Shown one piece after another: positions 9,865-29,611 of a stretch of 64,000 bases of DNA; positions within the stretch are counted from its first letter, which is position 1, and the number at the start of each line of letters is the position of its first letter. A program made the position numbers and the translations under genes. Source of the stretch: an uncultured Pseudomonadales bacterium (GTDB lineage: Bacteria > Patescibacteriota > Microgenomatia > UBA1400 > UBA1396); the NCBI GenBank assembly GCA_964447905.1, contig CAYUUK010000005.1, forward strand, positions 279 through 64,278, given 5' to 3'. Below the pieces are notes generated by a model. That model did no database searches. It worked only from the letters and a program-made list of their open reading frames with translations, and had not been told where the DNA came from.

Positions 9865-9878
9865 ATTTCTTGTCGAAG

Positions 9879-15902: not shown

Positions 15903-16590
15903 AGAGTTGAATAGGAAGGTCGCAAAACAATACGCAGGTACTCGTGCGTACTGGATGAGATCACCTGCTGGGATATCTTTACTGAAAACAACTGAGTATG
16001 CTCTTGAGAAATATACCTCAGGAGGTGATTTTCTTGATGCAGGAGCTGGTAAATTGGCCTATCGTTCACTGTTGAAAGAGTATGCAGATACATATACCAG
16101 TTGTGATTTTCAGAAGGTTCATCCAGAACTAGATGTAGTGACGGATATTGAAAAAATGTCTTTCAAGTCAAAGAAGTTTGATCTCGTTTTTTGCTCCCAA
16201 GTTTTAGAACATGTGCCGCACCCTTGGCTGGCTCTCGGTGAGATGTACCGTGTTTTAAAGCCATCTGGAACGGCAATTATTACTGTCCCCATGCTTGGGT
16301 ACATTCACAATGCACCCTATGATTTTTACCGCTACACCCAATACGGTCTGCATACACTCGCTGAGGATGCAGGTTTTACTGTATTGGAGATTGCTCCTGT
16401 AGGTGGATTCTTTGCATTTCTAGGATACGTATTTACTACGCTTATTTCGCCATTGTATGGAGTTCCTTTTGTTGGAAAACTCCTCGTTCCGCTCCTCTAT
16501 CCGTTGTACTGGACATTTTTACAGTTAGATAGAATTACTAACAATGAGTCTTTTTTTCCGCTTAACTATCTCCTCGTGGTAAGAAAATAG
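15880..16590 (+). CDS. class I SAM-dependent methyltransferase
   Basis: LDAGAG (motif I), DLVFCSQVLEHV, VLKPSG. AAGGAG Shine-Dalgarno. Confidence 0.8.
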   Translation: MSFKKILKELNRKVAKQYAGTRAYWMRSPAGISLLKTTEYALEKYTSGGDFLDAGAGKLAYRSLLKEYADTYTSCDFQKVHPELDVVTDIEKMSFKSKKFDLVFCSQVLEHVPHPWLALGEMYRVLKPSGTAIITVPMLGYIHNAPYDFYRYTQYGLHTLAEDAGFTVLEIAPVGGFFAFLGYVFTTLISPLYGVPFVGKLLVPLLYPLYWTFLQLDRITNNESFFPLNYLLVVRK

Positions 16591-16591
16591 T

Positions 16592-17509
16592 ATGAAAGTT
16601 TTTTTTGCTGGCGATACAATTTTCCCTAATACGAAGCGTACTGTACAGTCAGAAGTCTTAGAGACTCTCGCGGATTCATCATTGTATTTAAATCTAGAGT
16701 CTGTACTTCTCTCAAAGCGGCCCATAAACAGTGATGCATCCTTGATCGCAAAATTACTCGGAAATTATCCAGTTTTTTCTCTTAGCGAAAATAGTGAAAA
16801 TTTCCCTGTAAAGAATGTGTTTTTCTTTCTATCGAATAATCACATTTTCGATTTTGGGAAAAAAGGCATATTGCGTACAGTGCAGTTTTTAGAGGAAGAA
16901 AACAAAGCTCATCAATCAGTAGATTTAGTAGATGGAGTCATAGTGGAAGTTCCTGTTGCCAATCAGGGAAGAATTCTTATTTATAACTGTAATCTTGTAA
17001 ACCCGAGTAAATATGGGGTGAACGTAAATATCTACAATCATAGGTATGGGAGCTTTCCTTTTTCGATTAGAGATGTCAATCGAGCGTTGCAAAATGTGGA
17101 ATATTCAGATGTTTTGGCAGTCATAGGTTTTCCGCACTTGGGGAAGTGTGGTCGAGATAATTTTAGCCCTCACGATTTTGCACAGCTTACGTCACTGCGG
17201 CAATATATTCCGAATTCTATTCCACATATAGTTTTAGGTCATCACTCACATCAAAATGGGAAAACGCATTATTTGCCTGAAAGCAATCAATTTTTACTCT
17301 ATAGCCTTGGTAATTTTATTTTTGAAGAGGTCCATGGTCGTTTTACGGATAAGTATTTTTATAATTACCTCGCCGAGGTAGATGTACAGTCAGGTAGAAT
17401 TGATATCACCCTGCACAAGATATATAGTGATGATCAGGAAATCAGGTTGGTTTCAGATAACGAAAAGTCGTATTATCCGACTGATAATATTGAACAGATA
17501 TCTTTGTAA
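16592..17509 (+). CDS. CapA-like metallophosphoesterase (PGA_cap family)
   Basis: FFAGD...NLES, SNNHIFDFG and GHHSH match the CapA pattern GD/NLE/ANNH/H-x-H. Confidence 0.55.
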   Translation: MKVFFAGDTIFPNTKRTVQSEVLETLADSSLYLNLESVLLSKRPINSDASLIAKLLGNYPVFSLSENSENFPVKNVFFFLSNNHIFDFGKKGILRTVQFLEEENKAHQSVDLVDGVIVEVPVANQGRILIYNCNLVNPSKYGVNVNIYNHRYGSFPFSIRDVNRALQNVEYSDVLAVIGFPHLGKCGRDNFSPHDFAQLTSLRQYIPNSIPHIVLGHHSHQNGKTHYLPESNQFLLYSLGNFIFEEVHGRFTDKYFYNYLAEVDVQSGRIDITLHKIYSDDQEIRLVSDNEKSYYPTDNIEQISL

Positions 17510-17524
17510 AGAATAAGGAAATCT

Positions 17525-17947
17525 ATGGACTACACAATCCAAGAATTTGAAAAAATAAATGATTCTCGAGGTGAATTAGTTGTTTTTCTGAAAAGTGATG
17601 AGCTCGATGAACGGGATCGAGAGTTTGGGCAGATTTATTTTGTTACTTTTGAAGGTGAAAACCAAATTCGTGGTGAACACTATCATAAACATTGGCGTGA
17701 GTGGTTCGGCGTGGTATCTGGGAAAATATTGGTCCGTCTTAAAGATGTACGTAGCGGAGAAAAAAAAGAGATCATTATTGATGCTGACCACAGTAAGTAT
17801 GTGCGTTTAGAAACCGGTCCGTATGTTGTTCACGGTTTTAAGAGTATTTCTGAGTATGCTGCCATGATCAACTATGCTAATGGCATGTGGTCAGAGAATG
17901 ATACGTTTGCTCACCCATTATTTAATGAGGAGTGGAATGAAGAATAA
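17525..17947 (+). CDS. WxcM/FdtA-like cupin (sugar 3,4-ketoisomerase family)
   Basis: DSRGEL...IYFVTF...RGEHYHKH fits the FdtA-type cupin core. AAGGA Shine-Dalgarno. Confidence 0.6.
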   Translation: MDYTIQEFEKINDSRGELVVFLKSDELDERDREFGQIYFVTFEGENQIRGEHYHKHWREWFGVVSGKILVRLKDVRSGEKKEIIIDADHSKYVRLETGPYVVHGFKSISEYAAMINYANGMWSENDTFAHPLFNEEWNEE

Positions 17948-18947
17948 TTCTGCGGTACGAGTACTAGTTTCAGCAGTTGGCAGTACAACAGCTTTATCTG
18001 CTATAAAAGGTTTTCGGCGTGGTACTCTTCCAGTGTATATCTTGGGTACAGATAGTAATTCGCACGATACCGTTGCTGGCAGCGTATTTTGTGATGCTTT
18101 TGAGCGAGTACCACTTTTTCATTCTGATGAATATATACCCAAAATGCTTGAGGTATGCGAAAAGCACAAGATCCAGGTTATTGTTCCGATTGTTGATGAA
18201 GAAGTGTTACTTCTGTCACAAAACAAAGCAGCCTTTTTAGAAAAGGGTATACACATAGTAGCTTCTTCGCACGAAACAGTGTTGAATTGTAATGATAAAT
18301 TAAAGACATATCAGGCGCTGCTGGCCCAAGGAGTGGAGACAACTCCTACTTGGTTGCTTGAAGAAGTAGAAGCTAGCAGCGTCATATTTCCTCTTTTCTC
18401 GAAGCCTAGAAAAGGCCTCAGTAGCCGCGGAATCTCGCTAATCTCTACGGTTGAAGAGTTGCAGTCACTGCGGTCGAAATCTAGTGATTGTGTAGTACAA
18501 CCATACTATCCAGGTACACTCTACGTTGTGGATGTGCTCAATACTACAGATGGAAAGAACATATTTGCTCTGCCAAGAATAGAACATGAATCAAAAAGTG
18601 GAGTTGGCGTAAAATCCACCACTACTCATAATGATACACTTACAATGATATCTCGAGAGGTGAGTGAGGCTCTTGGTATTTGTGGTCCAGCAAATATAGA
18701 GTTCATCCAGACAGAAGATGGCGAGTTTCATTTTATTGAGATTAATCCTCGTTTTTCTGCTGGGTCAATTCTGAGTACTGTTGCTGGAGTGAATATTCAT
18801 CAGCAAGCGCTTGAGTTGTTTCTGGGAAAAGATAGAAATGAGGCACTTGAGTTTTTATCTGGGGTTACTATGACTCGTTATTGGCAGGAAGTGTATTATA
18901 GAGATGGAGAAGAATTTGGGTCACAGAGGGATGAAGCATGGATTTAA
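17937..18947 (+). CDS. ATP-grasp ligase
   Basis: ATP-grasp fold layout: pre-ATP-grasp region, the central nucleotide-binding segment ...SKPRKGLSSRGI..., and the C-terminal IEINPR. GAGGAG Shine-Dalgarno. The 11-nt overlap with the cupin gene suggests coupling. Confidence 0.65.
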   Translation: MKNNSAVRVLVSAVGSTTALSAIKGFRRGTLPVYILGTDSNSHDTVAGSVFCDAFERVPLFHSDEYIPKMLEVCEKHKIQVIVPIVDEEVLLLSQNKAAFLEKGIHIVASSHETVLNCNDKLKTYQALLAQGVETTPTWLLEEVEASSVIFPLFSKPRKGLSSRGISLISTVEELQSLRSKSSDCVVQPYYPGTLYVVDVLNTTDGKNIFALPRIEHESKSGVGVKSTTTHNDTLTMISREVSEALGICGPANIEFIQTEDGEFHFIEINPRFSAGSILSTVAGVNIHQQALELFLGKDRNEALEFLSGVTMTRYWQEVYYRDGEEFGSQRDEAWI

Positions 18948-19870
18948 CGAGGAAAAAGATAGTCATCACAGGTGGTACCGGATTTATTGGGACGCATATA
19001 GTAAATAGTCTTCTATCTTTGGGAGCTGAGGTGATTTCTTTTTCTCGTAAAGAGCGTCTATCGCACCATCCCCGTTTGCATTTTGTGCAGTGTGACCTTT
19101 TCGAGTCATCTTTGCAGGAATACGAATCACTGGCAGATGTTATCGGACAAACTGATGCTGCCATATTTGCAGCGGCTAGTATCTTGCCTCGGAGCGAGGG
19201 CGTAGATAGTTTAATTGCGGCTAAAGAGAAAAACTTCGATACATTTTTGAATTTCACGGAGACCGTCGGAAAAAAAACAAAGCAAGTAATATTTACCAGC
19301 ACTATAGATGTTTATGGAGTTCCTGAACACGAAGAGTACAGTGAGGAACATCGAATTTTACCCGAGTCTTCCTATGGAGTCGCTAAGTATGCAGCTGAGA
19401 AGTATCTTGAGTATTGGTCTCGGCAAAACAGCATTCCGTATACCGGTTTGCGTTTTTCTCAAGTATATGGACCGAATGAGCCATTGGTTCGTGTCATTCC
19501 TTTTGCCGTGCAAGCTTGGAAAGAGAAAAAAGCCTTTCGCTTGATCAATGGAGGCACAGATAAGAGAAGATTTCTGTATGTCCAAGATGCTGTTTCCTCA
19601 ATCATATCTGCACTAAGTACCAATAAAAATACTTTTTACAACATTGCTGGAGAAGATGTGGTTACGATTAGGGATATAGTTTCCACGATTGAAACACTGA
19701 CTGGTTCCACGATGGAAATCCAAGATCTGGTCCAAGAAGGTCGAAGGCCAGTGCATAATGTACCAAGTATAGCCAAAGCGAAAGATGAACTTGGCTTTCA
19801 ACCGGAGTACTCTTTTATAGCCGGGATGAAAGAAGTATTAAAGGATGTATATGAACATGAACAAGAGTAA
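18938..19870 (+). CDS. NAD-dependent epimerase/dehydratase (SDR)
   Basis: VITGGTGFIGTHIV Rossmann motif; YGVAKYAAE gives the YxxxK catalytic pair. Confidence 0.8.
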   Translation: MDLTRKKIVITGGTGFIGTHIVNSLLSLGAEVISFSRKERLSHHPRLHFVQCDLFESSLQEYESLADVIGQTDAAIFAAASILPRSEGVDSLIAAKEKNFDTFLNFTETVGKKTKQVIFTSTIDVYGVPEHEEYSEEHRILPESSYGVAKYAAEKYLEYWSRQNSIPYTGLRFSQVYGPNEPLVRVIPFAVQAWKEKKAFRLINGGTDKRRFLYVQDAVSSIISALSTNKNTFYNIAGEDVVTIRDIVSTIETLTGSTMEIQDLVQEGRRPVHNVPSIAKAKDELGFQPEYSFIAGMKEVLKDVYEHEQE

Positions 19871-21131
19871 ACAACTTTTTGATGAGTACCAAAAATATGT
19901 GCTTGAGGTGACGCCGTTTCGCGCCCCAATTCTTGCATCGGCTCAAGGAAGTTACTATAAAGATATCGATGGAAACAGCTATCTTGATCTTATGGGAGGC
20001 CAGTTTTGTGAAGTGTTGGGTCATGGAGATGAAGAGTTAGCGGAAGTGGTGTATAAACAGAGTAAAAAGATTTTACATACCAATACATTGTGTTTGACGG
20101 AAGAGGTTCTCGAAGCATGTCGTGCACTCAGTGAAATAACAGATGAAAAGCTACAAAAGACAATTTTACTTTCCACAGGAGCTGAAGCAGTTGAATGTGC
20201 ATTACGATATGCTCGTTTTTACACCAAGAAAGATGGGATTGTTTCGATCACCAACGGGTACCACGGTTTAACATTAGCAACGCAAAGTATTTCGAGTGGC
20301 GGGGCATATGCTCATCCCCTAGTTCCTGGTTCCCACTTTATTCCAACTCCTGATTGGCACAATCGTCCTGATGATATTGATGAAGGGGAGTTTATAGATC
20401 AACACCTTAAAGCTGCCGAAGAGTATCTAGTGGCATATGAAGGCACCCTCGCCGCCTTCATTATCGAGCCAGTGGTATCAGTTGGAGGAATGATTTATTT
20501 ACCCAAAGAGTACTTTATCGGACTAGCGGAGATTGCCAAAAAGCATGACGCTCTGCTAATCTATGACGAGTGTCAAACTGGACTGGGTCGACTTGGCACC
20601 TGGTTTGGGTATGAGCGAACTGGCATAGTACCAGATATTTTAATTTTAGCGAAAGCAGCAGGACTCGGTTTTCCAGTTTCAGCAGTTATGTTTTCTCAAG
20701 AAATTGCGGAGGCTGTAGAAGGAAAGTTCATTCACTTTAGCTCGCACCAAAATGATCCTTTTTCTGCTCGAATGGTACTTCACTTAGTCAATACGATAAA
20801 AAAAGAAAATATGCTTTCAACAATTCGGGAAAGCGGTGAGTACTTTGTAAGTCGCCTGCAAGAGCTTTCTAAAAAAAGTGCTTTGCTGTTGCGGCCGCGT
20901 GGAGAAGGACTCATGATTTCTTTCGATTTACCAGAAGAGCACTTTACTGAGACGATAAATCCCGGAATGCGGCTCATTGATTTGCTTGAACAGCACGGGG
21001 TAATGGTGCAGGCAATCCACAGAGGTAAGACGTTCCGTATAATTCCAAGTTATCGCATTTCTCGAGACGAAATTGATTTTTGTATTAAGACACTCGATAC
21101 CTGTTTACAAATTTTAGAAAAGGAACTATGA
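19851..21131 (+). CDS. class III PLP-dependent aminotransferase
   Basis: IYDECQTGLGRLG (D-E-x-Q-T-G) and ILAKAAGLG (PLP lysine region). Start chosen 5 nt after AAGGA. Confidence 0.8.
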   Translation: MNMNKSKQLFDEYQKYVLEVTPFRAPILASAQGSYYKDIDGNSYLDLMGGQFCEVLGHGDEELAEVVYKQSKKILHTNTLCLTEEVLEACRALSEITDEKLQKTILLSTGAEAVECALRYARFYTKKDGIVSITNGYHGLTLATQSISSGGAYAHPLVPGSHFIPTPDWHNRPDDIDEGEFIDQHLKAAEEYLVAYEGTLAAFIIEPVVSVGGMIYLPKEYFIGLAEIAKKHDALLIYDECQTGLGRLGTWFGYERTGIVPDILILAKAAGLGFPVSAVMFSQEIAEAVEGKFIHFSSHQNDPFSARMVLHLVNTIKKENMLSTIRESGEYFVSRLQELSKKSALLLRPRGEGLMISFDLPEEHFTETINPGMRLIDLLEQHGVMVQAIHRGKTFRIIPSYRISRDEIDFCIKTLDTCLQILEKEL

Positions 21132-22228
21132 AAGTACCTTTCGTTGATCTCTCCCAACAATATAAAGAGGTGAAAGTTGAACTGCAGAAGGATTTCGATC
21201 GGGTTTTTGCAGCACAGAACTTCATTTTAGGAAATGAAGTTGAGCAGTTTGAAAAAGAATTTGCCGCGTATATTGGGAGTAAGTACTGTGTAGGTGTTGG
21301 AAGTGGAACAGATGCACTTATCCTCGCCTTAAAGGCAATGGGTGTCGGTGAGAATGATGAGGTGATTTTGCCCACACACACTTTTGTAGCTACTGCTTTG
21401 GCGGTGATCGAAACAGGAGGAACCCCAGTTTTTGTGGATGTGGATGAGGCTACTCTGCAAATGGACGTGGATGCTGTCGCTGCTGCTATAAACACTAAGA
21501 CAAAGGTTATTCTGCCAGTTCACTTATATGGATCCATGGTTCCAATGGACAGACTTGTGCAGTTAGCTCAGAAGCACGATATTCAGATTTTAGAAGACGC
21601 TTGTCAGGCACATGGTGCGACGTATTCTGGGCAAAAAGCCGGGACATTTGGTAGTATGGCTGCCTTTAGCTTTTATCCTGGGAAAAATCTGGGCGCTTAT
21701 GGCGATGCTGGGGCAATTGTTACTAATGATCCTGAACTCTATGAACAGGCCAAACTCCTGCATAACTATGGGCAAAGAAAAAAGTACCATCATGAAATGC
21801 TCGGAAAAAATTCTCGTCTCGATGAGCTTCAGGCTGCATTTTTGCGGACAAAACTCCTGCATCTGGATAGCTGGAATCAGCAAAGAAAGCAAATTGCCCA
21901 AAAGTATAACGCTTCTTTAGGGCAGTATCGCTTGGAAGTTCCTGATGAAATAGAGAGTGTATATCACCTATACGTGATCCAGCATCCTCATCGTGATGAG
22001 TTGCAGGCATATTTAGAAAACCATGGGGTGAATACGCTTATTCACTATCCCATACCATTGCACATGCAGCAGTGTTTTAAGTACATGAATCATGCTCCGG
22101 AAGAGTATCCGATTGCCGAAAAGTACACAGCACGGATTCTTAGTTTACCAATTTATCCTGGCATGACTGATGAGCAGGTAGACTATGTCATTGAGCAAAT
22201 TCTGACGTTTGAGAACGAGAAGAAATGA
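21128..22228 (+). CDS. DegT/DnrJ/EryC1/StrS-family sugar aminotransferase
   Basis: Typical N-terminus VPFVDL...ILG.EV..FE..FA.Y and the SFYPGKNLGAYGDAGAI PLP-lysine box. Confidence 0.85.
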   Translation: MKVPFVDLSQQYKEVKVELQKDFDRVFAAQNFILGNEVEQFEKEFAAYIGSKYCVGVGSGTDALILALKAMGVGENDEVILPTHTFVATALAVIETGGTPVFVDVDEATLQMDVDAVAAAINTKTKVILPVHLYGSMVPMDRLVQLAQKHDIQILEDACQAHGATYSGQKAGTFGSMAAFSFYPGKNLGAYGDAGAIVTNDPELYEQAKLLHNYGQRKKYHHEMLGKNSRLDELQAAFLRTKLLHLDSWNQQRKQIAQKYNASLGQYRLEVPDEIESVYHLYVIQHPHRDELQAYLENHGVNTLIHYPIPLHMQQCFKYMNHAPEEYPIAEKYTARILSLPIYPGMTDEQVDYVIEQILTFENEKK

Positions 22229-23196
22229 GATCCCCAACGGTTTCTATCACGCTAGCAACATATAACAGAACGGAATTTCTGCAAGGGACTCTCGATTCTT
22301 TAGTCGCGCAAACGTATCAAGATTTTGAGATTATCTTGGTGGATGATGGCTCAACAGACAATACCCCACAGCATATTGAACAATTACTAAAAAATAAGAA
22401 GTATGCAAAGGTTCGATTTTTTCCACTACCAGAGAATAGAGGAATAGCGTTTGCTATATCCTACGCAATGCAGCACTCAAAAGGTAAGTATATCTCCCAT
22501 ATTGGCTCGGATGATCTATGGCAGAAAACGGCTCTTGAAAAAATGGTGCAGGTGCTCGATACCAATTCAGAAGTTGGTGTTGTGTACACAGATGCCTCTC
22601 GGATTGATAGAGATGGCAAGATACTTTCTGAATCTCGTTTTGCTGAGAACCCAATAGGACCTCAAAAAGGCTGGGTTTTTAAAGACTTGCTTCTAAAGGG
22701 AATGTTTGTGTCCGCTATCTCAGTTACGTTTCGGCGATCTTTGTATGATATTGTTGGCGATTTTGATACTAACTATAGCATTAGTAATGATTACGATTTC
22801 TTTATGCGCTGTTCCGCTCATGCACAATTTGACTATATTAATGAGGTCTTAGCTTGTTGGAGAATGCATGACAAAAATCTTCATAAGAAAGACAAAACAC
22901 AAGCTTACATAGAGAGAATAGCGGTTATTCAAAAGAATTACATGGCATGTGGCAAGGAATTCCATATCTCCGAATTGAGATATCGAACTATAATTTCTAG
23001 TATTTATCTTCAAACTGGAATTTTCAAAGCACAAGCGGGCGACTTTGCGGAAAGCCGACCGTATTTCATTAAAAGTTTGATGTTTATGCCAGTAAATATT
23101 TTAGCGTTTGTGTTGTTTTTTAACACATATCTGAAATTACGATGGTTATGGCATTTTGAAATATATAAAAAAGTATATTTGCGAATGTTTAAATAA
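22225..23196 (+). CDS. glycosyltransferase family 2
   Basis: SITLATYNR...ILVDDGSTDNT and the GSDD DxD region. Confidence 0.8.
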   Translation: MRSPTVSITLATYNRTEFLQGTLDSLVAQTYQDFEIILVDDGSTDNTPQHIEQLLKNKKYAKVRFFPLPENRGIAFAISYAMQHSKGKYISHIGSDDLWQKTALEKMVQVLDTNSEVGVVYTDASRIDRDGKILSESRFAENPIGPQKGWVFKDLLLKGMFVSAISVTFRRSLYDIVGDFDTNYSISNDYDFFMRCSAHAQFDYINEVLACWRMHDKNLHKKDKTQAYIERIAVIQKNYMACGKEFHISELRYRTIISSIYLQTGIFKAQAGDFAESRPYFIKSLMFMPVNILAFVLFFNTYLKLRWLWHFEIYKKVYLRMFK

Positions 23197-23198
23197 GT

Positions 23199-24140
23199 AT
23201 GAAACAGATACAATCACTTATGACCACGAAATGGTTTCGATATGGTGTTTCGATTCTTTTGACGGTTTTTCTTGTTTATTACTTTGTTGATTTTGGATTC
23301 TTTTTTGAAAATCTGTTGTCTACACGCTGGGAATACAGTATCATTCCAATTGTTTTTTACTATTTTCTTTTGGCGGCAATGGCTATGCGATGGCGTGTAG
23401 CTTTACGGCACTTATCAATCCATGTGCCATTGAGTGAACTCTTTTTGCTCTATTTGAAACACAACTGTATAAACCAAATTTCTCCAGGAAGTATCGTTGG
23501 AGATGGATATCGTGTTATTCATCTAAACAAAAAATACTCGGTGCCGAAAACTCTTTCTCTCTCGACAGTTATTATTGAGCGAATAGTAGGATTAAGTACA
23601 CGTATTCTTCTATTTGTACTCTTTTCTTTGTACCTATTTACCCAAATTGACTTTGTTTCTTTTGATTCCACTTCTCTCACAAAATATGTGTATTTGATAC
23701 CTGTTGTCGGTGTGATCTTCTTGGTTTCCCTTAAGCTATTTAAGAATAAACTCTTTTCTTTATTCAACACTGTGAAAAGTACTCTTCTAAATAGATATGT
23801 ATTAGTGGCTTCAATTGGTTTTACGCTTCTTGCTCAGGGAATACAGATTATTATGGCGTATGGAGTAGCTTTAATGGTCTCACTTCCGGTATCTCTCTAT
23901 CAGATAGGATTTGCTTTTGTGCTGGTAGAGCTCATCATGCTCATACCAGTCAGTGTGAATGGTTGGGGGACAAGGGAACTGGTTTTGATATATACCCTAG
24001 GAATATTTGGTGTGGATCCAACACTCACAACACTTTTTGCACTGATGAGCCGTGCTGTATATGTTTTCCTTACGTTACAAGGTCTTCCTTTTGTTATCCA
24101 TGAGTTTGGATTAAGAAATACTTTCAAGAAGCAACAGTAA
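23199..24140 (+). CDS. UPF0104/LPG-synthase-TM 'flippase-like' membrane protein
   Basis: 8-TM protein immediately after a GT2, the usual GT2/UPF0104 pairing. Confidence 0.55.
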   Translation: MKQIQSLMTTKWFRYGVSILLTVFLVYYFVDFGFFFENLLSTRWEYSIIPIVFYYFLLAAMAMRWRVALRHLSIHVPLSELFLLYLKHNCINQISPGSIVGDGYRVIHLNKKYSVPKTLSLSTVIIERIVGLSTRILLFVLFSLYLFTQIDFVSFDSTSLTKYVYLIPVVGVIFLVSLKLFKNKLFSLFNTVKSTLLNRYVLVASIGFTLLAQGIQIIMAYGVALMVSLPVSLYQIGFAFVLVELIMLIPVSVNGWGTRELVLIYTLGIFGVDPTLTTLFALMSRAVYVFLTLQGLPFVIHEFGLRNTFKKQQ

Positions 24141-24141
24141 T

Positions 24142-26658
24142 TTATTTTTTGGTATAACTATACACAACTATTGGTTCATTTCTTCTGCCAGAATGCACAC
24201 CGACTTCGTCTATTGGGCTGACAAAGCGTTTCGTAAATATATCCATAACATAGAGCGAAAGTGTATTGTTATGCTCACTAAAGCGTCGGCCAGCGAATAG
24301 CCACAGCGTTTGGCCAGATTTCATTTGGGTAAGTACTTGTGTAAGCTCGTCAGCGTTTCGAATGTATGGTGTGTTTGAGTAGATCGAAAGAACCTTATTA
24401 CTTCCAGATGGAATATATCCCATTTCGGAGCTCAAAGTTCCATTCATGATGTAGTCGTATTGACCATAGTGCCAGGGGTTGTAGATATCTGTAACTACAT
24501 ATATATCATTTGGCCGCTTGTGGTTACTGATGAAGGATAGTGCTTCCAGTGATCGTGGACTTCTGATAACAGCTGTAATTCCGTGAAACACGTGTGGGTT
24601 TTCAAGTAGCTTTGTGTAGAGCTTTGCCTGAGAGATCGTGCTGCTAGAGTAGAGTTCAATGTCACCAACACGGTTTCTTTCAAAGTAGTAGTGACTGGCA
24701 TAGTCTTTTACGGTACGTGAGGAAAGGATACCAATCAAGAGTGTACCGATAAAAACGAATGGCAACAGTTTTTTTGAAATTGATAGTTTTTGCACAAGAG
24801 AAAAAAGGATCCAGATGGCAAAAATACCAAAAGCAATATATGTGCCGAGCAAATACTTAACGGCAAAGCGATTAAACAGTAAGAATCCAAAAAGGAAGTT
24901 AAGGAGAGAAAAAATACCGATTAGAGTTATTTTTTCTGGTATCTTGATGTCTAGAGTGCGCCGTTTTAGAAGAAAATAGAGCGTAAGCACCACAATGAAT
25001 ATCAAAATTCCAAGATGACTGTAGAGTATGGTCGAACTGTAGTAGTGGAATGTGGGTAAAAAAGAATCTAAAACCCCAACTGTATTCGAAGACTGGACTG
25101 CATAGGTTCCTTTTAGGAAATGCAGACGGTAAAAATTGAGAATTTTAAAATTAAAGAGGTATCCCGCTGTAAAGCTAGCAAGGAGTGACAGCAATGAGAC
25201 ATTTCTCAACCATTTCCATCGATCTCTAAGCACCAAAAACACTAGGAAAGCCGGTATTACTGCATAGCTGAACAAAAGACTTGAACCAGCTACAAAGACA
25301 ATACCAATATATGTGGCAAGTTTGCTCTTTGATATTTTTTGAATGGAAGTTTGGTGGAAGATAGCAAGTGAGAGAAAGAGCAGTAAATATCCAATCATGT
25401 AGTGGCGAGCTTGAGTAGACCAAGCAATAAGATAGGGATATGTAGCAGCATATATCCCAACACCACATGCGAATACTTTGTTTGTATTTTTATAGAACTG
25501 AGTTAAGAAGTACACAAAGGCAACACCTGTAAGTAACGAGACAAGTCGCATAGAAAAGTGATTCGTGCCCAGAAGCAATCCACTGAGAGCTGTTAGGTAA
25601 CTGAAGAGATAACCTCGCATATATAGTTGGCCTGATTCGAAGAGAGGAAAACCATTTTTGAGAATGGCATCAGTGATGAGAGGGTAGAGCCCTTCGTCGC
25701 CACTAAATGGTAACAGCGAAATGTTGAGGAGTCTCAGTATTGCTGCAAATAGGGTGGTGTAGAGTGAAAGTACAATAAATCGATGTTCTCGAGTTTGTGA
25801 ACCACTCTTTTCTGCGGAGAAGAAGTTAAGACGTATTCTTTTTTGTAATCGGATGGCTAAGAGTGTTGCGGAGCTCAAAAATGGTCCAAAGGAAATAAAG
25901 ATGACAGCGATATATTGTTCAAGTTTGTTAAAAATATACTCAGATTCATATACAGCTTTTTTGTACAGAAAATTAAGGAATTCTGTAGGGTCATTTCTAA
26001 AATCTGCGATCGAGAAGATGTGTCGATAGTAAACTGCTTCTAGCAAAAGTTCGCCAGAATTCGGAAGTATTTGGTAGGTATAGGTTTTCTGCTTGGATTT
26101 AAGTTTTGGAAAACCGAGAATCATTGTTTTTTCTTGAGTCGGGGTAAACTCAGTCTCGAAAAGCCATTCTGTTGAGTCTTTTTCTTTCAGTCGAAAAATA
26201 AAGTTGCTCTGCATCGGTGTTTTGAGTGTAACGAGCAGAGTGCCAAAATTATTTACAGTGGATTCGTAATAACCTTCATATGCATGCGTATTTGTTTTCT
26301 CCTCTTCTGTGAGAGCTTTATAAACAGTAATGTTTTTGGGAGGATGGGTTTCAAAATGATGTTGTGAAACTGAAAAAGAACCTGATAGAAACGTGAAAAT
26401 AGCAATGCTGGCGAGTAGTAGCGGTGAAAAAAGAAAAGAGATACCCAACTCAGTTACTGAATGAATGATTGCCCTAAATTGAATTTTCTTCCAATTGAAG
26501 GCAATAAGGCTAACGGTACTAATGATTGGTGCGAGAATAAAAAAATTTGGGAGTTTGAAGTATGGATGCGGACTAAAAAACTGGAGACAAAAGAGTAAAC
26601 CTGTCAGAGCAGAAAAAAGTAGAAATACTCGTGCTAACGAGGCAAAAGATAATTTCAT
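24142..26658 (-). CDS. GT-C glycosyltransferase (ArnT/PMT GT39/GT83-like) with extra N- and C-terminal domains
   Basis: Core PFSGDEGLYPLITDAIL...PLFESGQLYMRGYLFSYL matches the DE-x-Y loop-1 motif of the ArnT/PMT family. More than 12 TM; 838 aa. Confidence 0.65.
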   Translation of the reverse strand: MKLSFASLARVFLLFSALTGLLFCLQFFSPHPYFKLPNFFILAPIISTVSLIAFNWKKIQFRAIIHSVTELGISFLFSPLLLASIAIFTFLSGSFSVSQHHFETHPPKNITVYKALTEEEKTNTHAYEGYYESTVNNFGTLLVTLKTPMQSNFIFRLKEKDSTEWLFETEFTPTQEKTMILGFPKLKSKQKTYTYQILPNSGELLLEAVYYRHIFSIADFRNDPTEFLNFLYKKAVYESEYIFNKLEQYIAVIFISFGPFLSSATLLAIRLQKRIRLNFFSAEKSGSQTREHRFIVLSLYTTLFAAILRLLNISLLPFSGDEGLYPLITDAILKNGFPLFESGQLYMRGYLFSYLTALSGLLLGTNHFSMRLVSLLTGVAFVYFLTQFYKNTNKVFACGVGIYAATYPYLIAWSTQARHYMIGYLLLFLSLAIFHQTSIQKISKSKLATYIGIVFVAGSSLLFSYAVIPAFLVFLVLRDRWKWLRNVSLLSLLASFTAGYLFNFKILNFYRLHFLKGTYAVQSSNTVGVLDSFLPTFHYYSSTILYSHLGILIFIVVLTLYFLLKRRTLDIKIPEKITLIGIFSLLNFLFGFLLFNRFAVKYLLGTYIAFGIFAIWILFSLVQKLSISKKLLPFVFIGTLLIGILSSRTVKDYASHYYFERNRVGDIELYSSSTISQAKLYTKLLENPHVFHGITAVIRSPRSLEALSFISNHKRPNDIYVVTDIYNPWHYGQYDYIMNGTLSSEMGYIPSGSNKVLSIYSNTPYIRNADELTQVLTQMKSGQTLWLFAGRRFSEHNNTLSLYVMDIFTKRFVSPIDEVGVHSGRRNEPIVVYSYTKK

Positions 26659-27251
26659 AAAGTGCTTGGATCCTGAATAGTAAAGTATTTATATTTATCA
26701 CAGATATTATTTGTATTGCAGAGGCGTAAAATTGCGTTGTCTATAGGTTCTGTTACAGGTTGTTTTATAACAACTTTTTCATTTTCCCATCGGACAATGA
26801 TGAAGTTTGTATTTCCGACCGTGACTGTACCTGCTTGCCAGGGATCACCAAAATTTTGACCATTCAGAGACACATAATCACCTTGAATTGAAGAAGTACT
26901 ACTGAGAGAGTGTATCCTTAGTGCTGTGAATGAATTTGTGCCCGTGATAAAGAACAGAATTGCTATTGGAAGAAAAGAAAGAAAAACCAATACGTAAATA
27001 AGCGGGTTTCTTTTTTGAGCAATAAATTCACCTACCCAAAAAGCAACAATTGAAGAAATTAAGAGGCATATCGCTTGAAATATTAAAAAAAATGACTCGA
27101 AAGGGACTCGAGTTTGAAAGGAGAGTAATGAGCCGCTACTCAAGAGTATTACAAAAATTAGTAGAGCAAAGAAGAGTTTCCAAACAAAGAGATTCGCTGA
27201 TATAGGGATTGCTCGTATTAACTTTTTGGCCTGAGTCGTAATAGCATGCAT
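26655..27251 (-). CDS. membrane protein (3–4 TM plus a soluble C-terminal domain), unknown function
   Basis: ORF with TGA/ATG overlap to the downstream GT-C. Hydrophobic N-terminal half. Confidence 0.4.
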   Translation of the reverse strand: MHAITTQAKKLIRAIPISANLFVWKLFFALLIFVILLSSGSLLSFQTRVPFESFFLIFQAICLLISSIVAFWVGEFIAQKRNPLIYVLVFLSFLPIAILFFITGTNSFTALRIHSLSSTSSIQGDYVSLNGQNFGDPWQAGTVTVGNTNFIIVRWENEKVVIKQPVTEPIDNAILRLCNTNNICDKYKYFTIQDPSTL

Positions 27252-27258
27252 ATCAATA

Positions 27259-28170
27259 TTACTTTAAAAAGTAGTTTTGGTTAGATTTCTGCTGTATCAT
27301 CAAATCCATAATCAACCCACTCACAAACATCTGAAACCCAAACAATATCAAGAAGATAGCCATCAGGGGCCAGATGCGATCGCTCAAACTGTAGCCCCAA
27401 ACCAAGCGGGCGAAAAAGAGCCATGCCAAGAGAGCTACTCCGCTGCTGCCTAACAAAATCCCCACCCCGCCCAAAAAATGCAACGGCCTCGCCGAGTACT
27501 TCTGGAAGAACCACAAACTCAGCATGTCCAAGAAGCCCTTGAGCGTGCGCTTAAAGTTGTACTTCGTAGTGCCGTGGATGCGTGCGCGGTGGTTGGTGAC
27601 CATCTCGCCAATCTGGAAGCCGCGCCACTTCAAGATGGCCGGAATAAAGCGGTGCATCTCGCCGCGGAGATTCACGCCTTCGAAGCACTCTTGTCGATAG
27701 ACGCGCAGCGTACAGCCGGAGTCATGCACTCCATCGCTCACCAAAAACGAGCGCAGCCAGCGGGCGCCCTGGGAAATAAAGCGTTTACTAAAGGTATCCT
27801 TGCGGCGTTTGCGCCAGCCGCAGACTACATCGAGGTCTTCTTTGAGCAGTTTCTCCAGCATTTTTGGTACGTCGGCGGGGTCGTTTTGCAGGTCGCCGTC
27901 GAGCGTGACTAAGAACTCGCCTTGGGCGGCTTTGATACCGGCGTCCATCGAGGCGGTTTGGCCGAAGTTGCGGCGCATGCGCAGGATGGTGATGGGATCG
28001 AGTTTTAGCAGTTCGGCGTAGGTGTTGTCGGTGGAGCCGTCGTCTATAAAGATGATCTCAAATGGTTTTTTTATCTTTTTGGCCGCCGCCACTATTTCGC
28101 CATGCAGCGTGGCCACGTTTTCCTCTTCGTTCATGACAGGCACGATAAATGAAATGTACGGCGTAGACAT
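27259..28170 (-). CDS. polyprenyl-phosphate sugar synthase (GtrB/ArnC/DPM1-like GT2)
   Basis: ISFIVPVMNEEEN...IFIDDGSTDNT...TLDGDLQNDP...RGFLDM plus two C-terminal TM segments. Start set at MSTPY (28170). The track ORF's extra N-terminus looks non-coding. Confidence 0.8.
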   Translation of the reverse strand: MSTPYISFIVPVMNEEENVATLHGEIVAAAKKIKKPFEIIFIDDGSTDNTYAELLKLDPITILRMRRNFGQTASMDAGIKAAQGEFLVTLDGDLQNDPADVPKMLEKLLKEDLDVVCGWRKRRKDTFSKRFISQGARWLRSFLVSDGVHDSGCTLRVYRQECFEGVNLRGEMHRFIPAILKWRGFQIGEMVTNHRARIHGTTKYNFKRTLKGFLDMLSLWFFQKYSARPLHFLGGVGILLGSSGVALLAWLFFARLVWGYSLSDRIWPLMAIFLILFGFQMFVSGLIMDLMIQQKSNQNYFLK

Positions 28171-28406
28171 GCTATTTACTATACCAGGTTGTGCGTTTTG
28201 TGTGAAGGTTGGGTGGTATAACAGAACGTATGCGGTTTCAATTCCGAAAAATAATACGTATAGGAGCACAAAGATGGATCGGAATTGTCCAACGGCGTGA
28301 TTACACACATACAGCTATTACACTTTTACAAGTAACGTTTGGTGTGGCCTGGGCAAGTTTGCTGAATATTCAACACATCCAGGCTCCAGCAGCTCTGGGA
28401 AATTTG

Positions 28407-28436
28407 TTGATATGTTTACTCTTGTGGTACTATATT
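28407..28436 (+). promoter_or_regulatory. sigma70-like promoter TTGATA-18-TATATT
   Basis: The hexamers seen directly, with 18-nt spacing, about 20 nt upstream of an AAGGAG-ATG micro-ORF. Confidence 0.4.
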
Positions 28437-28455
28437 TTCTTAAAGAAGGAGCAAA

Positions 28456-28599
28456 ATGGTTGAATTCATTCAGAGGATTCTTGAGGGAATTGCATACTAT
28501 TCACCATTTATTATCATGTTCGTTATCACAAGCATGATTGTTGGACCGCTCTTATTGGCGCAATTCTTTGGATTTCTCTCAAAAATTATAAAAAACTAG
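28456..28599 (+). CDS. 47-aa single-TM micro-protein (MVEFIQRILEGIAYYSPFIIMFVITSMIVGPLLLAQFFGFLSKIIKN)
   Basis: ATG 5 nt after an AAGGAG Shine-Dalgarno, preceded by a canonical promoter. Absent from the track because it is under 60 aa. Confidence 0.45.
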   Translation: MVEFIQRILEGIAYYSPFIIMFVITSMIVGPLLLAQFFGFLSKIIKN

Positions 28600-29552
28600 G
28601 TATTGAGCCGATTTTCCCGATACCACTCCACAAACTTCCGTAACCCTGTAGCAAACGGCGTCTTGGGCTCATACCCCAAATCTTGCTGCGCGGCGCTGAC
28701 ATCGGCATACGTAATCTCCACATCGCCGGGTTGCATGGGGTATTGATCGATAACTGCTTTTTTACCGATGATCTCTTCGAGAGTAGCAATAAACTCGTTG
28801 AGGCTCACCGGTGTGTGGTTGCCGAGGTTGTAGATGGCAAACGGCTTGGGGTGATCAATGGCGCCTAACACGCCATCCACGATGTCGTCGATAAACGTGT
28901 AGTCGCGTTTGGTTTCGCCGGTGCCGAATTTTTTGATTGGTTTCCCCTGGAATATGGCTTCGGTAAACAAGTACGGCGCCATATCTGGCCGGCCATTTGG
29001 TCCGTACACCGTAAAAAAGCGTAAGCAAGTGGCTTGGATGTCATAGAGATGGGCGTAGGTGTGGCAGTACATTTCGAGCGCCTTTTTGCAGGCAGCGTAC
29101 GGGCTGATCGGTGCGTTGGCTGGGTCGGTTTCTGAGAATGGCACTTTGGTTTGGTTGCCGTACACGGAGCTGGACGAGGCGGCCACAATCTGTTTCACGC
29201 CGTGCTGGTGCATGGCTTCTAAGATGTGGAGAGTGCCTTGGACGTTGGTTTTTTCATACAGGAGAGGATCGGCGATGGACGGGCGCACACCAGCCCGCGC
29301 GCCGAGGTGGACGATGCAGTCAAAGGCGTTGTGGGCAAAGAGCGGTTCGAGCTCTGTTTGCTCGGAAAAGTCGAGTTGCTGAAAAGTGAAGTGCTCATGC
29401 TGTGCTAAGCGGTCAATATTTGCTTGTTTCCACTCAGGGCTGTAGTAGTCGTTGAGATTGTCGATGCCGGTAACGGTGTCACCCCGCTGCAGAAGCGTTT
29501 CGGCCACATGAGAACCAATAAAACCGGCGACGCCAGTAACGAGTAGATGCAT
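28596..29552 (-). CDS. UDP-sugar (glucuronate-type) 4-epimerase, NAD-dependent
   Basis: LVTGVAGFIGSHV, YSPEWK, SSSSVYG and YAACK (YxxxK) resemble UDP-glucuronate 4-epimerases. Confidence 0.8.
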   Translation of the reverse strand: MHLLVTGVAGFIGSHVAETLLQRGDTVTGIDNLNDYYSPEWKQANIDRLAQHEHFTFQQLDFSEQTELEPLFAHNAFDCIVHLGARAGVRPSIADPLLYEKTNVQGTLHILEAMHQHGVKQIVAASSSSVYGNQTKVPFSETDPANAPISPYAACKKALEMYCHTYAHLYDIQATCLRFFTVYGPNGRPDMAPYLFTEAIFQGKPIKKFGTGETKRDYTFIDDIVDGVLGAIDHPKPFAIYNLGNHTPVSLNEFIATLEEIIGKKAVIDQYPMQPGDVEITYADVSAAQQDLGYEPKTPFATGLRKFVEWYRENRLNT

Positions 29553-29611
29553 GGGGACATGGTAGCACAATTTGTGTGCGCTCACGCTCAGCAAGGAGCA
29601 AAAATGAATTG

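Follow-up and report, generated by a model that had tools for sequence, protein, structure and literature searches.

A probable polyprenyl-phosphate-sugar-dependent extracytoplasmic glycosylation locus in a Candidatus Woesebacteria (CPR) host

Three minus-strand genes at positions 24142-28170 of the window (the whole 64-kb stretch of DNA that was analysed) have been taken, in a sequence-only reading, for a Gtr/Arn-like module that makes a lipid-linked sugar, flips it and transfers it outside the membrane. The questions raised by this locus are whether these genes form such a system, which of its steps they cover, and what the acceptor of the sugar may be. All three open reading frames were found where that reading had placed them, and they are listed here with their neighbours.

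8578-9864: second Wzx-like gene
9879-12266: YfhO-like GT-C protein
13405..22228, plus strand: upstream part of the convergent operon, encoding a GT4, a CapK/PaaK-like ligase, a methyltransferase, PGA_cap, an FdtA-like cupin, an ATP-grasp protein, an SDR and aminotransferases
17525-17947, plus strand: the FdtA-like cupin, within the convergent operon
22225..23196, plus strand: GT2b, 323 aa, Leloir GT-A of the sugar-to-sugar type (TuaG, PglI, chondroitin synthase, SpsA-like)
23199..24140, plus strand: UPF0104/LPG_synthase_TM protein (PplT, AglD2/YbhN family), 313 aa, candidate flippase, convergent with the GT-C gene
24142..26658, minus strand: GT-C glycosyltransferase, 838 aa, divergent member of the ArnT/PMT_2-like clan
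26655..27251, minus strand: accessory membrane protein, 198 aa, with three TM helices and an extracytoplasmic IPT/TIG (Ig-like) domain (Pfam, hydropathy)
27259..28170, minus strand: GT2a, 303 aa, ArnC/GtrB/PgfS-like polyprenyl-phosphate sugar synthase (predicted), with a GT-A domain and a C-terminal two-helix membrane hairpin
28178..28206, minus strand: sigma-70-like promoter match (TTCACA-17-TATAGT with TG), ending 8 nt 5' of the GT2a ATG
28596..29594, minus strand: GalE-like NDP-sugar epimerase/dehydratase, upstream of GT2a
33122-38068: Wzx/Wzy-type cluster

The three minus-strand genes are real and not chance ORFs, because orthologues are found in the same order in four further loci (L001-L004); dN/dS values against L002 span 0.05-0.20 across all five genes tested (GT2a 0.05, middle gene 0.20, GT-C 0.10). 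The longest possible ORF of GT2a begins at a GTG at 28308, and since its homologues are 303 aa long, the ATG at 28170 is the real start. The overlapping stop and start codons described earlier exist at only one of the two junctions: the stop of the middle gene and the start of the GT-C share an ATGA (26655-26658), through which both genes are translationally coupled, whereas 7 nt separate the GT2a stop (27259) from the ATG of the middle gene (27251). The promoter is a consensus match only, of a kind rarer in this region than in shuffled sequence.

The first enzyme, GT2a, holds DDG and DGD motifs in its GT-A domain (Pfam PF00535, E 2.8e-30). Residues 6-289 match the NCBIfam models ArnC (E 5.6e-39) and, as second best, PgfS (E 1.9e-33), both under the equivalog cutoffs (134 bits against 529 in the case of ArnC), while the full-length protein, hairpin and DXD motif included, matches the PDB structures of ArnC (9hwj, E 1.5e-33) and GtrB (5ekp, E 2.8e-24). 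Its assignment as an ArnC/GtrB/PgfS-type enzyme is thus borne out over its full length by both searches. The C-terminal TM hairpin on which this assignment had been made to depend is present, as the two hydrophobic segments noticed there (230-257 and 265-293 by hydropathy) align with the membrane hairpin of ArnC. From this homology, GT2a is predicted to make a polyprenyl-phosphate-linked sugar. The GalE-like epimerase (Pfam Epimerase, E 2.4e-60; NCBIfam GalE, E 2.5e-53, under cutoff) probably supplies it with the nucleotide sugar. This gene is placed alike in L001, L002 and L015 (50% identity to the L015 fragment) and is absent from the corresponding position in L003.

The middle protein had been judged not to be a GtrA-type flippase, which is correct given its three TM helices and outward IPT/TIG domain, and it gave no GtrA match. 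The TIG domain (PF01833, residues 112-165) scores just over the Pfam cutoff (E 2.7e-4, 21.3 bits against 20.9), is also present in the L001 and L003 orthologues and is kept in alignment A5; only a single cluster of homologues of the middle protein was found among 5.8 billion proteins. Because none of the three genes encodes a flippase, the proposed module to make, flip and transfer a sugar is not self-contained. The functional unit extends beyond them, to the GalE-like epimerase upstream and to the convergent operon 13405-24140.

The best candidate for the flippase, and a likely one, is encoded outside the interval 24142-28170 by the UPF0104 gene, whose stop codon is 1 nt from that of the GT-C gene. 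Its product matches Pfam PF03706 (E 6e-34, over cutoff) and the flippase-like domain TIGR00374 (E 3.5e-18). In this family, flippase activity is known only for the MprF domain with a phospholipid, and is not known for a polyprenyl-phosphate sugar. UPF0104 proteins have been predicted to be flippases, and in archaea their genes lie in a conserved neighbourhood together with those of a PMT/STT3-like enzyme and an AglD-like GT2 (PMC5898192); moreover, glycolipid operons such as gpgSDF, in which the synthase is a GT4, end in a UPF0104 gene (PMC12713373). The protein encoded here may instead flip the product of the GT4 and GT2b. GT2b is probably not a polyprenyl-phosphate sugar synthase; its PDB matches include none of ArnC, GtrB and DPMS. 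The upstream part of this operon, which includes one class-III and one DegT aminotransferase, probably serves the synthesis and attachment of a modified amino sugar. As two Wzx-type flippases and the YfhO-like GT-C are encoded in the same glycan region, partners could also be shared otherwise.

The 838-aa protein comprises the following parts.

26365..26658, minus strand: residues 1-98, three extra N-terminal TM helices, lineage-specific (hydropathy)
26014..26286, minus strand: residues about 125-215, extracytoplasmic Ig-like beta-sandwich between extra TM3 and extra TM4
24709..25800, minus strand: residues 287-650, ArnT-like transmembrane catalytic core (region aligned to GT-C structures)
25681..25710, minus strand: PFSGDEGLYP, residues 317-326 of the translation, first extracytoplasmic loop with the putative catalytic D321-E322
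24145..24708, minus strand: residues 651-838, C-terminal extracytoplasmic alpha/beta domain

Although the protein itself has no Pfam match, most of its relatives carry PF13231, and structure and profile searches agree with the proposed GT-C fold, with ArnT and PMT as its closest kin; the DE of the first outer loop is conserved. The fold similarity, the other point on which the earlier interpretation hinged, was found with the predicted model, among whose structural matches ArnT ranks first or second (Foldseek E 1.3e-7, 619 columns against the 541-residue ArnT chain); the profile of its relatives matches STT3A (E 8.5e-10) and ArnT (E 6.9e-8). Model confidence in the core is high over most of residues 287-650 (pLDDT ~85-98, with lower values at 511-560 and 631-650). 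Alignment A1 shows no variation at D321 and E322, whose conservation across 80 relatives is 90% or more, and distant relatives show an equivalent W/x-DE directly past their TM1. The remaining core invariants are R309, P338, G343, Y346, R348, R371, R418 and Y420. By the distribution of positively charged loops, the beta-domain, the DE loop and the TIG domain all lie on the outer side. Fold and motif are thus evident, and from them the enzyme would be expected to transfer a sugar.

Both terminal additions described for this protein exist, with corrected sizes. The N-terminal one is not of about 300 residues but of about 286, GT-C TM1 being the helix 287-310, and its three TM helices, Ig-like beta-sandwich and further TM helix are confined to the closest relatives. 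Residues 1-98 are conserved in P0011 and L002 (pLDDT <50), and confidence in the model is low for its first 127 residues. The C-terminal domain covers about 188 rather than 170 residues and is not an addition, but normal in the wider family, since its HMM matches 59 of the 220 collected relatives (51 outside its eight building sequences) and ArnT-type enzymes also have a C-terminal periplasmic domain. Its invariants are Y653, N727, Y731, D735, N739, Y748 and Y760, and residues 700-838 are mostly modelled with a pLDDT >90 when a deeper alignment is used.

GT2a, the TIG protein, the GT-C and the convergent UPF0104 gene with GT2b are found together in L001-L004, at GT-C identities of 79%, 76% and 37%. 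At 37%, in L003 and L004, the block from PGA_cap to UPF0104 is kept, and so is the order GT2a, TIG protein, GT-C. The UPF0104 gene adjoins GT-C relatives in these four loci and in L008, L010, L011 and L015, a linkage that persists to about 26-28% GT-C identity. In L008, L010 and L011 (28%) the GT-C is convergent with UPF0104, GT2, methyltransferase and GT4 genes, the gene 5' of it encodes a different beta-rich protein in place of the TIG protein, and the contigs end short of where an ArnC-like GT2 could be visible. L015, a distant locus, is a single operon of epimerase, GT2a-like protein (44% identical to GT2a, E 5e-91), GT4, two methyltransferases, UPF0104 and then GT-C; L008 and L010 likewise have a GT4 and a methyltransferase together with the GT-C. 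The conserved partners of the GT-C, namely the GT4, GT2b, methyltransferase and UPF0104 genes, are of a glycan- or glycolipid-building kind. GT2a is far more conserved than its neighbours (93% in L002 and 68% in L003, against 62-76% and 32-35%), and GC content is 0.53 in GT2a and the epimerase against 0.36-0.39 in the TIG, GT-C, UPF0104 and GT2b genes.

Taken together, the locus is quite probably a polyprenyl-phosphate-sugar-dependent extracytoplasmic glycosylation system of an uncultured Candidatus Woesebacteria (CPR) bacterium, a fairly ordinary cell-surface glycosylation locus, but a real one. On the cytoplasmic face, GT2a would move one sugar from a nucleotide sugar, probably provided by the epimerase, to undecaprenyl or another polyprenyl phosphate, as its full-length homology suggests. 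The UPF0104 protein would then flip the lipid-linked sugar, in line with the conserved gene linkage and the published predictions for the family, and the GT-C would pass it to an acceptor on the outer face via D321-E322 of its first outer loop. The outward Ig-like and TIG domains are interpreted here as acceptor-recognition or scaffold modules, by likeness to the CBM, MIR and TPR domains of other GT-C enzymes; both three-component systems and GT-Cs that bear additional binding domains have been described (PMC11127046).

As for the acceptor, we tentatively propose a lipid-anchored short glycan or glycolipid. The enzymes of the convergent operon (a GT4, GT2b, a methyltransferase and the amino-sugar enzymes) would assemble it at the cytoplasmic side of the membrane, and it would then be exported. 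The logic would then resemble that of PIM/LM synthesis, lipoteichoic acid glycosylation, or the action of ArnT on lipid A. With the same donor pathway, the GT-C could instead glycosylate proteins, as an O-glycosyltransferase of pilins, S-layer proteins or others at the surface, in the manner of PMT or of the streptococcal systems GtrB/PgtC2 and PgfS/PgfE/PgfM1; its Ig-like domain and the TIG domain would then bind the protein substrate. This is unlikely: the conserved partners are a GT4, GT2b, a methyltransferase and UPF0104 rather than a substrate protein, neither a MIR nor a TPR domain is present, and the suggested survey for Ser/Thr-rich secreted proteins gave no strong candidate in the 64-kb window (maximum S+T fraction of 0.38 per 40 residues, in a short doubtful ORF). 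It is likewise doubtful that the enzyme adds a branch sugar outside, in a Gtr- or GT136-like manner, to a polymer (polysaccharide or teichoic-acid-like) that the neighbouring Wzx/Wzy genes produce. The nearby Wzx/Wzy-type cluster and second Wzx-like gene favour such a role, as do the GT2 and Wzx genes close to the module in L001 and the extra carbohydrate-binding domains typical of such GT-C systems (PMC11127046); however, a tRNA-Val, a Dus gene and a C39-like gene separate the cluster from the module, and the short contigs of distant relatives show UPF0104, GT2, methyltransferase and GT4 but no Wzx/Wzy. Finally, it is very unlikely that this is only a variable glycan island, in which the three genes and the convergent operon are not one pathway, GT2a serves another GT-C (e.g., the YfhO-like one) and the 838-aa enzyme takes its donor from elsewhere, because, although the conservation and GC contrasts and the uncoupled GT2a junction fit it, the three-gene order survives divergence, L015 joins a GT2a orthologue, UPF0104 and a related GT-C, and the GC contrast recurs in L003 and can be explained by AT-rich codons of hydrophobic, fast-evolving membrane proteins.

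Regarding known systems, the Gtr/Arn-like label has to be given up in its strict sense: neither a Gtr nor an Arn orthologue is present, GtrA, ArnD, ArnE, ArnF and an ArnA formyltransferase are all missing here, and the GT-C carries LYP and LYMRG in place of RYA and YFEKP, the loop motifs of ArnT (PMC5377068). The ArnC/ArnT pathway of lipid A aminoarabinose modification (GT2 ArnC, GT83 ArnT) nevertheless shares with this locus the full-length GT2a homology, the structural match of the GT-C, the SDR and DegT (ArnB-like) amino-sugar genes of the adjacent operon and perhaps a lipid-anchored acceptor. In contrast, both GT2a and the GT-C fall far under the orthologue cutoffs, and the N-terminal module (3 TM, Ig-like, 1 TM) and the TIG partner are extra. 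The CPR lineage of the host is generally considered to have no outer membrane.

The streptococcal O-glycosylation systems (PMC12041528, PMC5856776) also combine a GT2 Und-P-sugar synthase, an adjacent epimerase gene and a GT-C in a cell with a Gram-positive-type envelope; however, PgtC2 and PgfM1 are YfhO-family GT-Cs, unlike the ArnT/PMT_2-like protein found here, whose surroundings encode neither a substrate adhesin nor a Ser/Thr-rich protein. The GT4 and terminal UPF0104 flippase gene resemble gpgS and gpgF of gpgSDF/hexSDF (PMC12713373), and mycobacterial PIM/LM synthesis (GT4 PimA/B, GT2 Ppm1, GT-C PimE) offers a parallel in its GT4-built lipid-anchored glycan, which a GT-C extends outside the membrane from a GT2-made polyprenyl-P sugar. 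Both differ in that no deacetylase is present here, the lipid acceptor of this locus is purely a prediction, and they lack counterparts of the ATP-grasp protein, two aminotransferases, FdtA-like cupin, CapK-like ligase and PGA_cap.

The three-component systems GtrA/GtrB/GtrC, CsbB/GtcA/YfhO and GT136 (PMC11127046) likewise unite a polyprenyl-P sugar synthase, a flippase and an outside-acting GT-C, and GT136, Emb and AftD also have an additional extracytoplasmic beta-sandwich domain. Here, in contrast, the candidate flippase is UPF0104/PplT and not GtrA, SMR or MATE, the GT-C belongs to the ArnT/PMT_2 branch and not to GtrC, YfhO or GT136, a TIG-domain membrane protein is added, and the components are spread over two convergent operons. 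In the archaeal neighbourhood of AglD-like GT2, UPF0104 (AglD2) and PMT/STT3-like proteins (arCOG00897, arCOG00899, arCOG00563; PMC5898192), AglD often fuses GT2 and UPF0104, whereas in this bacterial (CPR) host the genes are separate and UPF0104 adjoins the non-ArnC-type GT2b; in both, function is predicted, and the same three families are linked in the genome.

The module comprises three minus-strand ORFs, which lie where the sequence-only reading had placed them:

27259-28170, minus strand: GT2a, a family 2 glycosyltransferase of 303 aa
26655-27251, minus strand: the middle protein, a membrane protein of 198 aa
24142-26658, minus strand: the GT-C protein, of 838 aa

The overlapping stop and start codons described in that reading hold for one of the two junctions: the middle and GT-C genes share the ATGA at 26655-26658, whereas the GT2a stop is separated from the middle start by a gap of 7 nt. 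The motif PFSGDEGLYP is indeed present, as GT-C residues 317-326 (coded at 25681-25710). The longest ORF for GT2a starts at a GTG at 28308, but its homologues in other Woesebacteria are 303 aa long, the length obtained from the ATG start used here. The same gene order has been found in four further loci, L001, L002 (Candidatus Woesebacteria S5C87), L003, and L004, and the dN/dS values with respect to L002 are 0.05 for GT2a, 0.20 for the middle gene, and 0.10 for GT-C. All three ORFs are real genes. The members of the 90% cluster of GT2a are named Candidatus Woesebacteria in NCBI, which assigns the organism to the CPR/Patescibacteria, and the window, which carries genes for tRNA synthetases, SecA, enolase, and RecJ along with three tRNAs, is chromosomal.

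A putative promoter (TTCACA-17-TATAGT with an extended -10 TG; 28178-28206, minus strand), recognized purely by its match to the consensus, ends 8 nt before the GT2a ATG (28170). An mRNA started from it would have no leader or almost none, and a Shine-Dalgarno sequence is not evident. In L001 (Logan assembly SRR12390697), the reading frame shifts within a C/A homopolymer run (ACCCACCAAAAAATG) at positions 9940-10010, orthologous to window 26300-26370; misassembly, a pseudogene, or phase variation could account for this. The resulting split of GT-C into 116 and 724 aa has been rejected as the true structure, given this homopolymer frameshift and the intact ORFs of 848-860 aa in L002, L003, and L004.

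GT2a matches PF00535 in Pfam, and its residues 6-289 are homologous to residues 10-293 of ArnC (NCBIfam, E 5.6e-39; PDB 9hwj, E 1.5e-33). Homology has also been found with PgfS (E 1.9e-33) and, over residues 4-289, with GtrB (5ekp, E 2.8e-24). The alignments take in the DXD motif, in which the DGD of GT2a stands opposite the DAD of ArnC, and both C-terminal TM helices. The C-terminal TM hairpin, expected earlier from two hydrophobic segments, is thereby located at residues 230-257 and 265-293. GT2a consequently shows the GT-A domain with a DXD motif, the C-terminal two-TM hairpin, and the full-length homology that define ArnC/GtrB-type enzymes, and is, from its sequence, a member of the polyprenyl-phosphate sugar synthase class. 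It is not an orthologue of ArnC, the Und-P-L-Ara4FN synthase (134 bits vs an equivalog cutoff of 529), and it also falls below the PgfS equivalog cutoff (116 bits vs 500). As these scores are far below the cutoffs, no sugar specificity can be assigned.

The affiliation of the 838-aa protein is recognizable only through an 80-sequence profile and structure models. Direct searches with this protein gave no match in Pfam (E <= 0.1), NCBIfam, or the PDB sequences, and a profile of eight sequences gave none in the PDB. Apart from the protein itself, a word-indexed homologue search retrieved a single relative, at 79% identity, while an exhaustive HMMER search of 1.84 billion representatives yielded 385 matches, only three of them at E < 1e-30: P0002 (79% identical), P0011 (860 aa, 37% identical over the full length), and P0012 (31% identical, from residue 289). 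Four other relatives (P0013-P0016) have the membrane core and the C-terminal domain in common with GT-C, and the remaining matches mainly cover residues 290-500. In profile scans with the alignment A4, a single locus was obtained from genome contigs and no relative from metagenome contigs.

The 80-sequence profile matched STT3A (8.5e-10), ArnT (6.9e-8), and ALG9 (1.3e-3) among the PDB sequences, and the proteins found with it are mostly named GT39, ArnT-family, or mannosyltransferase. PF13231 (PMT_2) is carried by P0013, P0015, and most of the 62 profile matches, and is matched weakly by P0002 and P0014. A first AlphaFold model, built with 56 sequences, had a mean pLDDT of 61.5; the second, with 80 sequences, reached 73.3 (pTM 0.71), with most of the core (290-650) and most of 700-838 above pLDDT 85-90. 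The structure searches agreed with one another, Foldseek placing ArnT at the top (E 1.3e-7, 619 columns; the ArnT chain has 541 residues), and hence the fold similarity on which the sequence-only reading hinged was found. The predicted structure shows a multi-pass fold with the N-terminal GT-C module and an acidic DE in the first extracytoplasmic loop after TM1, as in the GT-C superfamily, and the GT-C fold is established.

The acidic pair, D321-E322, lies just after helix 287-310, is invariant in the alignment A1, and is conserved to at least 90% in 80 relatives; distant relatives have an equivalent x-DE motif directly after the first TM helix. In the eight closest sequences, R309, D321, E322, P338, G343, Y346, R348, R371, R418, and Y420 are invariant, along with a C-terminal set formed by Y653, N727, Y731, D735, and N739. 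The first-loop motifs RYA and YFEKP are needed for the activity of ArnT (PMC5377068). The first loop of GT-C reads PFSGDEGLYPLITDAILKNGFPLFESGQLYMRGY, with LYP and LYMRG at positions that are equivalent by eye. The protein has therefore been rejected as an ArnT (GT83) orthologue, and the NCBIfam ArnT profile does not match it. Like ArnT, in which a C-terminal periplasmic domain follows the TM core, GT-C ends in a confidently modelled alpha/beta region (700-838).

Hydropathy and the AlphaFold models give the following layout for the GT-C protein:

residues 3-30, 36-54, and 68-98: extra TM helices
residues about 125-215: beta-rich soluble region (Ig-like)
residues 249-271: extra TM helix
residues 272-292: strongly basic loop (Arg/Lys-rich)
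residues 287-310: TM1, followed by the DE loop
up to residue 650: membrane core
residues 651-838: alpha/beta domain

By the positive-inside rule, the beta domain, the DE loop, and the C-terminal domain are all predicted to face the outside of the cell, the DE loop because the flanking loop 272-292 is rich in Arg and Lys. Both ends of the protein had been described as unusual additions. This is so for the N-terminal extension of about 286 residues, as local HMMs found the N-terminal module confined to the closest relatives. The C-terminal domain, in contrast, appears in 59 of the 220 collected relatives and is therefore a normal feature of the family.

In the middle protein, three TM helices precede an IPT/TIG domain (PF01833, 21.3 bits vs a cutoff of 20.9), which is also recorded in the L001 and L003 orthologues and is the conserved part of the protein. 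From the charged loops, this domain is predicted to lie outside the cell. The earlier statement that this is not a GtrA-type flippase stands, as PF04138 is not matched and GtrA proteins have about 120 aa and four TM helices; a GtrA-, ArnE-, or ArnF-like flippase has been rejected on the basis of the three TM helices and the TIG domain. Its homologues form only one cluster in a collection of 5.8 billion proteins, and it is the fastest-evolving member of the gene set (62% identity to L002, 32% to L003). In two loci with 28%-identity GT-C relatives (L008:2-445 and L010:1-702), the gene overlapping the GT-C start encodes a beta-rich protein that is not TIG, has no Pfam match, and has its 5' end cut by the contig. 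A different extracytoplasmic partner may occupy the TIG slot in these loci.

The module faces a convergent operon, and an epimerase gene lies upstream of it:

13405-24140, plus strand: convergent operon for a GT4, a CapK/PaaK-like ligase, a methyltransferase, PGA_cap, an FdtA-like cupin, an ATP-grasp protein, an SDR, a class-III aminotransferase, a DegT aminotransferase, GT2b, and UPF0104
22225-23196, plus strand: GT2b, 323 aa
23199-24140, plus strand: UPF0104/LPG_synthase_TM, 313 aa
28596-29594, minus strand: GalE-like epimerase

The UPF0104 and GT-C genes converge with their stop codons 1 nt apart (the UPF0104 TAA ends at 24140, and GT-C begins at 24142 on the minus strand). As there is no terminator-like hairpin in the intervening stretch (24138-24144), the two transcripts must either overlap or end within the facing gene. 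The UPF0104 protein is above the thresholds of PF03706 (E 6e-34, 118 bits vs 33.4) and of the TIGR00374 flippase-like domain (66 bits vs 43.2).

This linkage recurs in other loci. In L003 and L004 (GT-C 37% identical), the block from PGA_cap to UPF0104 is kept opposite the GT2a, TIG, and GT-C genes, and in L008, L010, and L011 (28% identical) GT-C is again convergent with UPF0104, GT2, methyltransferase, and GT4 genes. L015 holds a single operon with an SDR epimerase (50% identical to that at 28596-29594), a GT2 (44% identical to GT2a over the full length, E 5e-91), a GT4, two methyltransferases, UPF0104, a GT-C that is a 542-aa PMT_2 relative (26% identical), and a second GT-C. The tandem PMT_2-type genes (L015:5001-8399; 542 and 545 aa) follow UPF0104, and the start of the first overlaps its stop. 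The triad of GT2a, UPF0104, and GT-C, whose component functions are predicted, is thus encoded together in the window, L001-L004, and L015, while the more distant GT-C relatives P0031 and P0161 are found without the convergent-operon context.

UPF0104 is the flippase domain of MprF and has been predicted to be a flippase for archaeal glycosylation, where it is encoded beside a PMT/STT3-like protein and an AglD-like GT2 (PMC5898192). It is also encoded last in glycolipid operons such as gpgSDF, in which a GT4 serves as the synthase (PMC12713373), and is widespread, either alone or fused to glycosyltransferases (10.1101/2022.03.11.483950). Gene linkage and these predictions support the protein encoded at 23199-24140 as a candidate flippase. 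GT2b is similar to GT-A enzymes that join sugar to sugar, such as chondroitin synthase, SpsA, and TuaG. The idea of GT2b as a polyprenyl-P sugar synthase, which with UPF0104 would form a split AglD, has been rejected as the main explanation: in the PDB it is related to chondroitin synthase, SpsA, and GalT1, and ArnC, GtrB, and DPMS do not appear among its matches. The GT2 of the single operon in L015 is GT2a-like, not GT2b-like.

The base composition shows a sharp step between 15880-27251 and 27259-29594. The GC content is 0.36-0.39 for the TIG, GT-C, UPF0104, and GT2b genes, 0.37-0.43 for the remaining plus-strand operon, and 0.53 for GT2a and the epimerase (window mean, 0.46), and the contrast is repeated in L003 (0.46 vs 0.34-0.38). 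GT2a is also conserved far above its neighbours. The step could be the result of horizontal transfer of the acceptor-specific part or simply of membrane-protein codon bias.

In the proposed mechanism, GT2a would load a sugar, probably supplied by the adjacent GalE-like epimerase, onto polyprenyl phosphate, as its homology suggests. UPF0104, given its conserved linkage, would flip the lipid-linked sugar, and GT-C would transfer it outside the membrane via the putative catalytic pair D321-E322, a role suggested by homology and fold. The Ig-like insert and the TIG partner may act as acceptor-recognition modules, by analogy with other GT-C enzymes in which extra extracytoplasmic domains have such a role (PMC11127046).

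The acceptor tentatively favoured, at somewhat under an even chance, is a lipid-anchored glycan produced by the operon for GT4, GT2b, the methyltransferase, and the amino-sugar enzymes, because these operon genes travel with GT-C. The addition of a side chain to a polymer made by neighbouring Wzx/Wzy genes is a less likely alternative. Such a cluster lies in the window:

33122-38068, plus strand: Wzx/Wzy-type cluster for a GT2, a Polysacc_synt_3 flippase, a GT2, a 279-aa ORF, and a Wzy_C/O-antigen-ligase-like protein

This cluster is a possible source of an acceptor polymer, and the module in L001 is also adjoined by two GT2 genes and a Wzx gene. A protein O-glycosyltransferase, by analogy with the PMT and Pgf-like systems that offer a precedent (PMC12041528), is likewise a less likely alternative, and the Ser/Thr-rich secreted proteins that the sequence-only reading proposed to seek as acceptors gave no convincing candidate within the 64-kb window.

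With the lipid-anchored glycan as acceptor, the approximately 16 kb of the two convergent operons (13405-29594) might even encode a complete pathway for a CPR-specific lipid-anchored glycoconjugate, a rather doubtful proposal. A glycolipid with an N-acylated amino sugar would be assembled by the GT4, GT2b, and the methyltransferase; UPF0104 would carry it outwards, possibly along with the polyprenyl-P sugar; and the new ArnT-like GT-C subfamily would finish it outside, recognizing the acceptor via the Ig-like insert and the dedicated TIG partner subunit. If true, Woesebacteria would have their first defined pathway for an envelope glycolipid, and there would be genomic evidence for UPF0104 proteins as flippases of GT-C dependent glycosylation in bacteria.

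Several other features have been observed in the window:

8578-9864, plus strand: Wzx-like gene, adjoining the following two
9879-12266, minus strand: 795-aa ORF with a weak YfhO C-terminal match (PF09586, E 6.9e-8)
12155-13009, minus strand: GT2 overlapping the upstream end of the 795-aa ORF
31235-33100, minus strand: 621-aa protein combining a Peptidase_C39_2-like domain (E 6.6e-7) with a hydrophobic segment at the N-terminus, beside a Dus gene
41321-45339, minus strand: two large adjacent ORFs of 836 and 539 aa without a Pfam match

The region 8578-13009 may thus hold a second GT2/GT-C pair. The 836-aa ORF (41321-43831) has about three hydrophobic segments and a local Ser/Thr-rich stretch near residue 82. 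Paralogy of GT-C with this ORF or with the 795-aa YfhO-like ORF has been tested and discarded; the 795-aa ORF shows no detectable similarity to GT-C. A 609-aa ORF occupies the position of the 621-aa C39-like gene in L001 and L002.

CPR/Patescibacteria are tiny, largely uncultured bacteria that live attached to other cells, and to our knowledge their surface chemistry is almost unknown, though it must mediate attachment. The locus offers a concrete, testable gene set for one CPR surface glycoconjugate, and it is a further, bacterial instance of the recurrent linkage between an ArnC-type synthase, UPF0104, and an ArnT/PMT-like GT-C, which bears on the old question of what flips polyprenyl-phosphate monosaccharides. 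The advance is incremental, as the literature already contained the enzyme classes, the logic of three components, and the prediction of UPF0104 as a flippase. Literature searches on CPR and Patescibacteria gave nothing specific to this system. What is new is a small, fast-evolving GT-C subfamily (its size taken from the three representatives at E < 1e-30) with an N-terminal module of three TM helices, an Ig-like domain, and one TM helix; a dedicated TIG-domain partner protein; and a clear bacterial case of GT2/UPF0104/GT-C linkage.

The module is orthologous neither to the Arn, Gtr, CsbB-YfhO, and GT136 systems nor to the archaeal neighbourhood: its scores fall short of the equivalog cutoffs, it has no ArnT motifs, and GtrA, ArnD, ArnE, and ArnF are lacking. 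Its working logic is that of the three-component Arn, Gtr, CsbB-YfhO, and GT136 systems, and it mirrors the archaeal neighbourhood in which an AglD-like GT2, UPF0104, and a PMT-like protein are encoded together.
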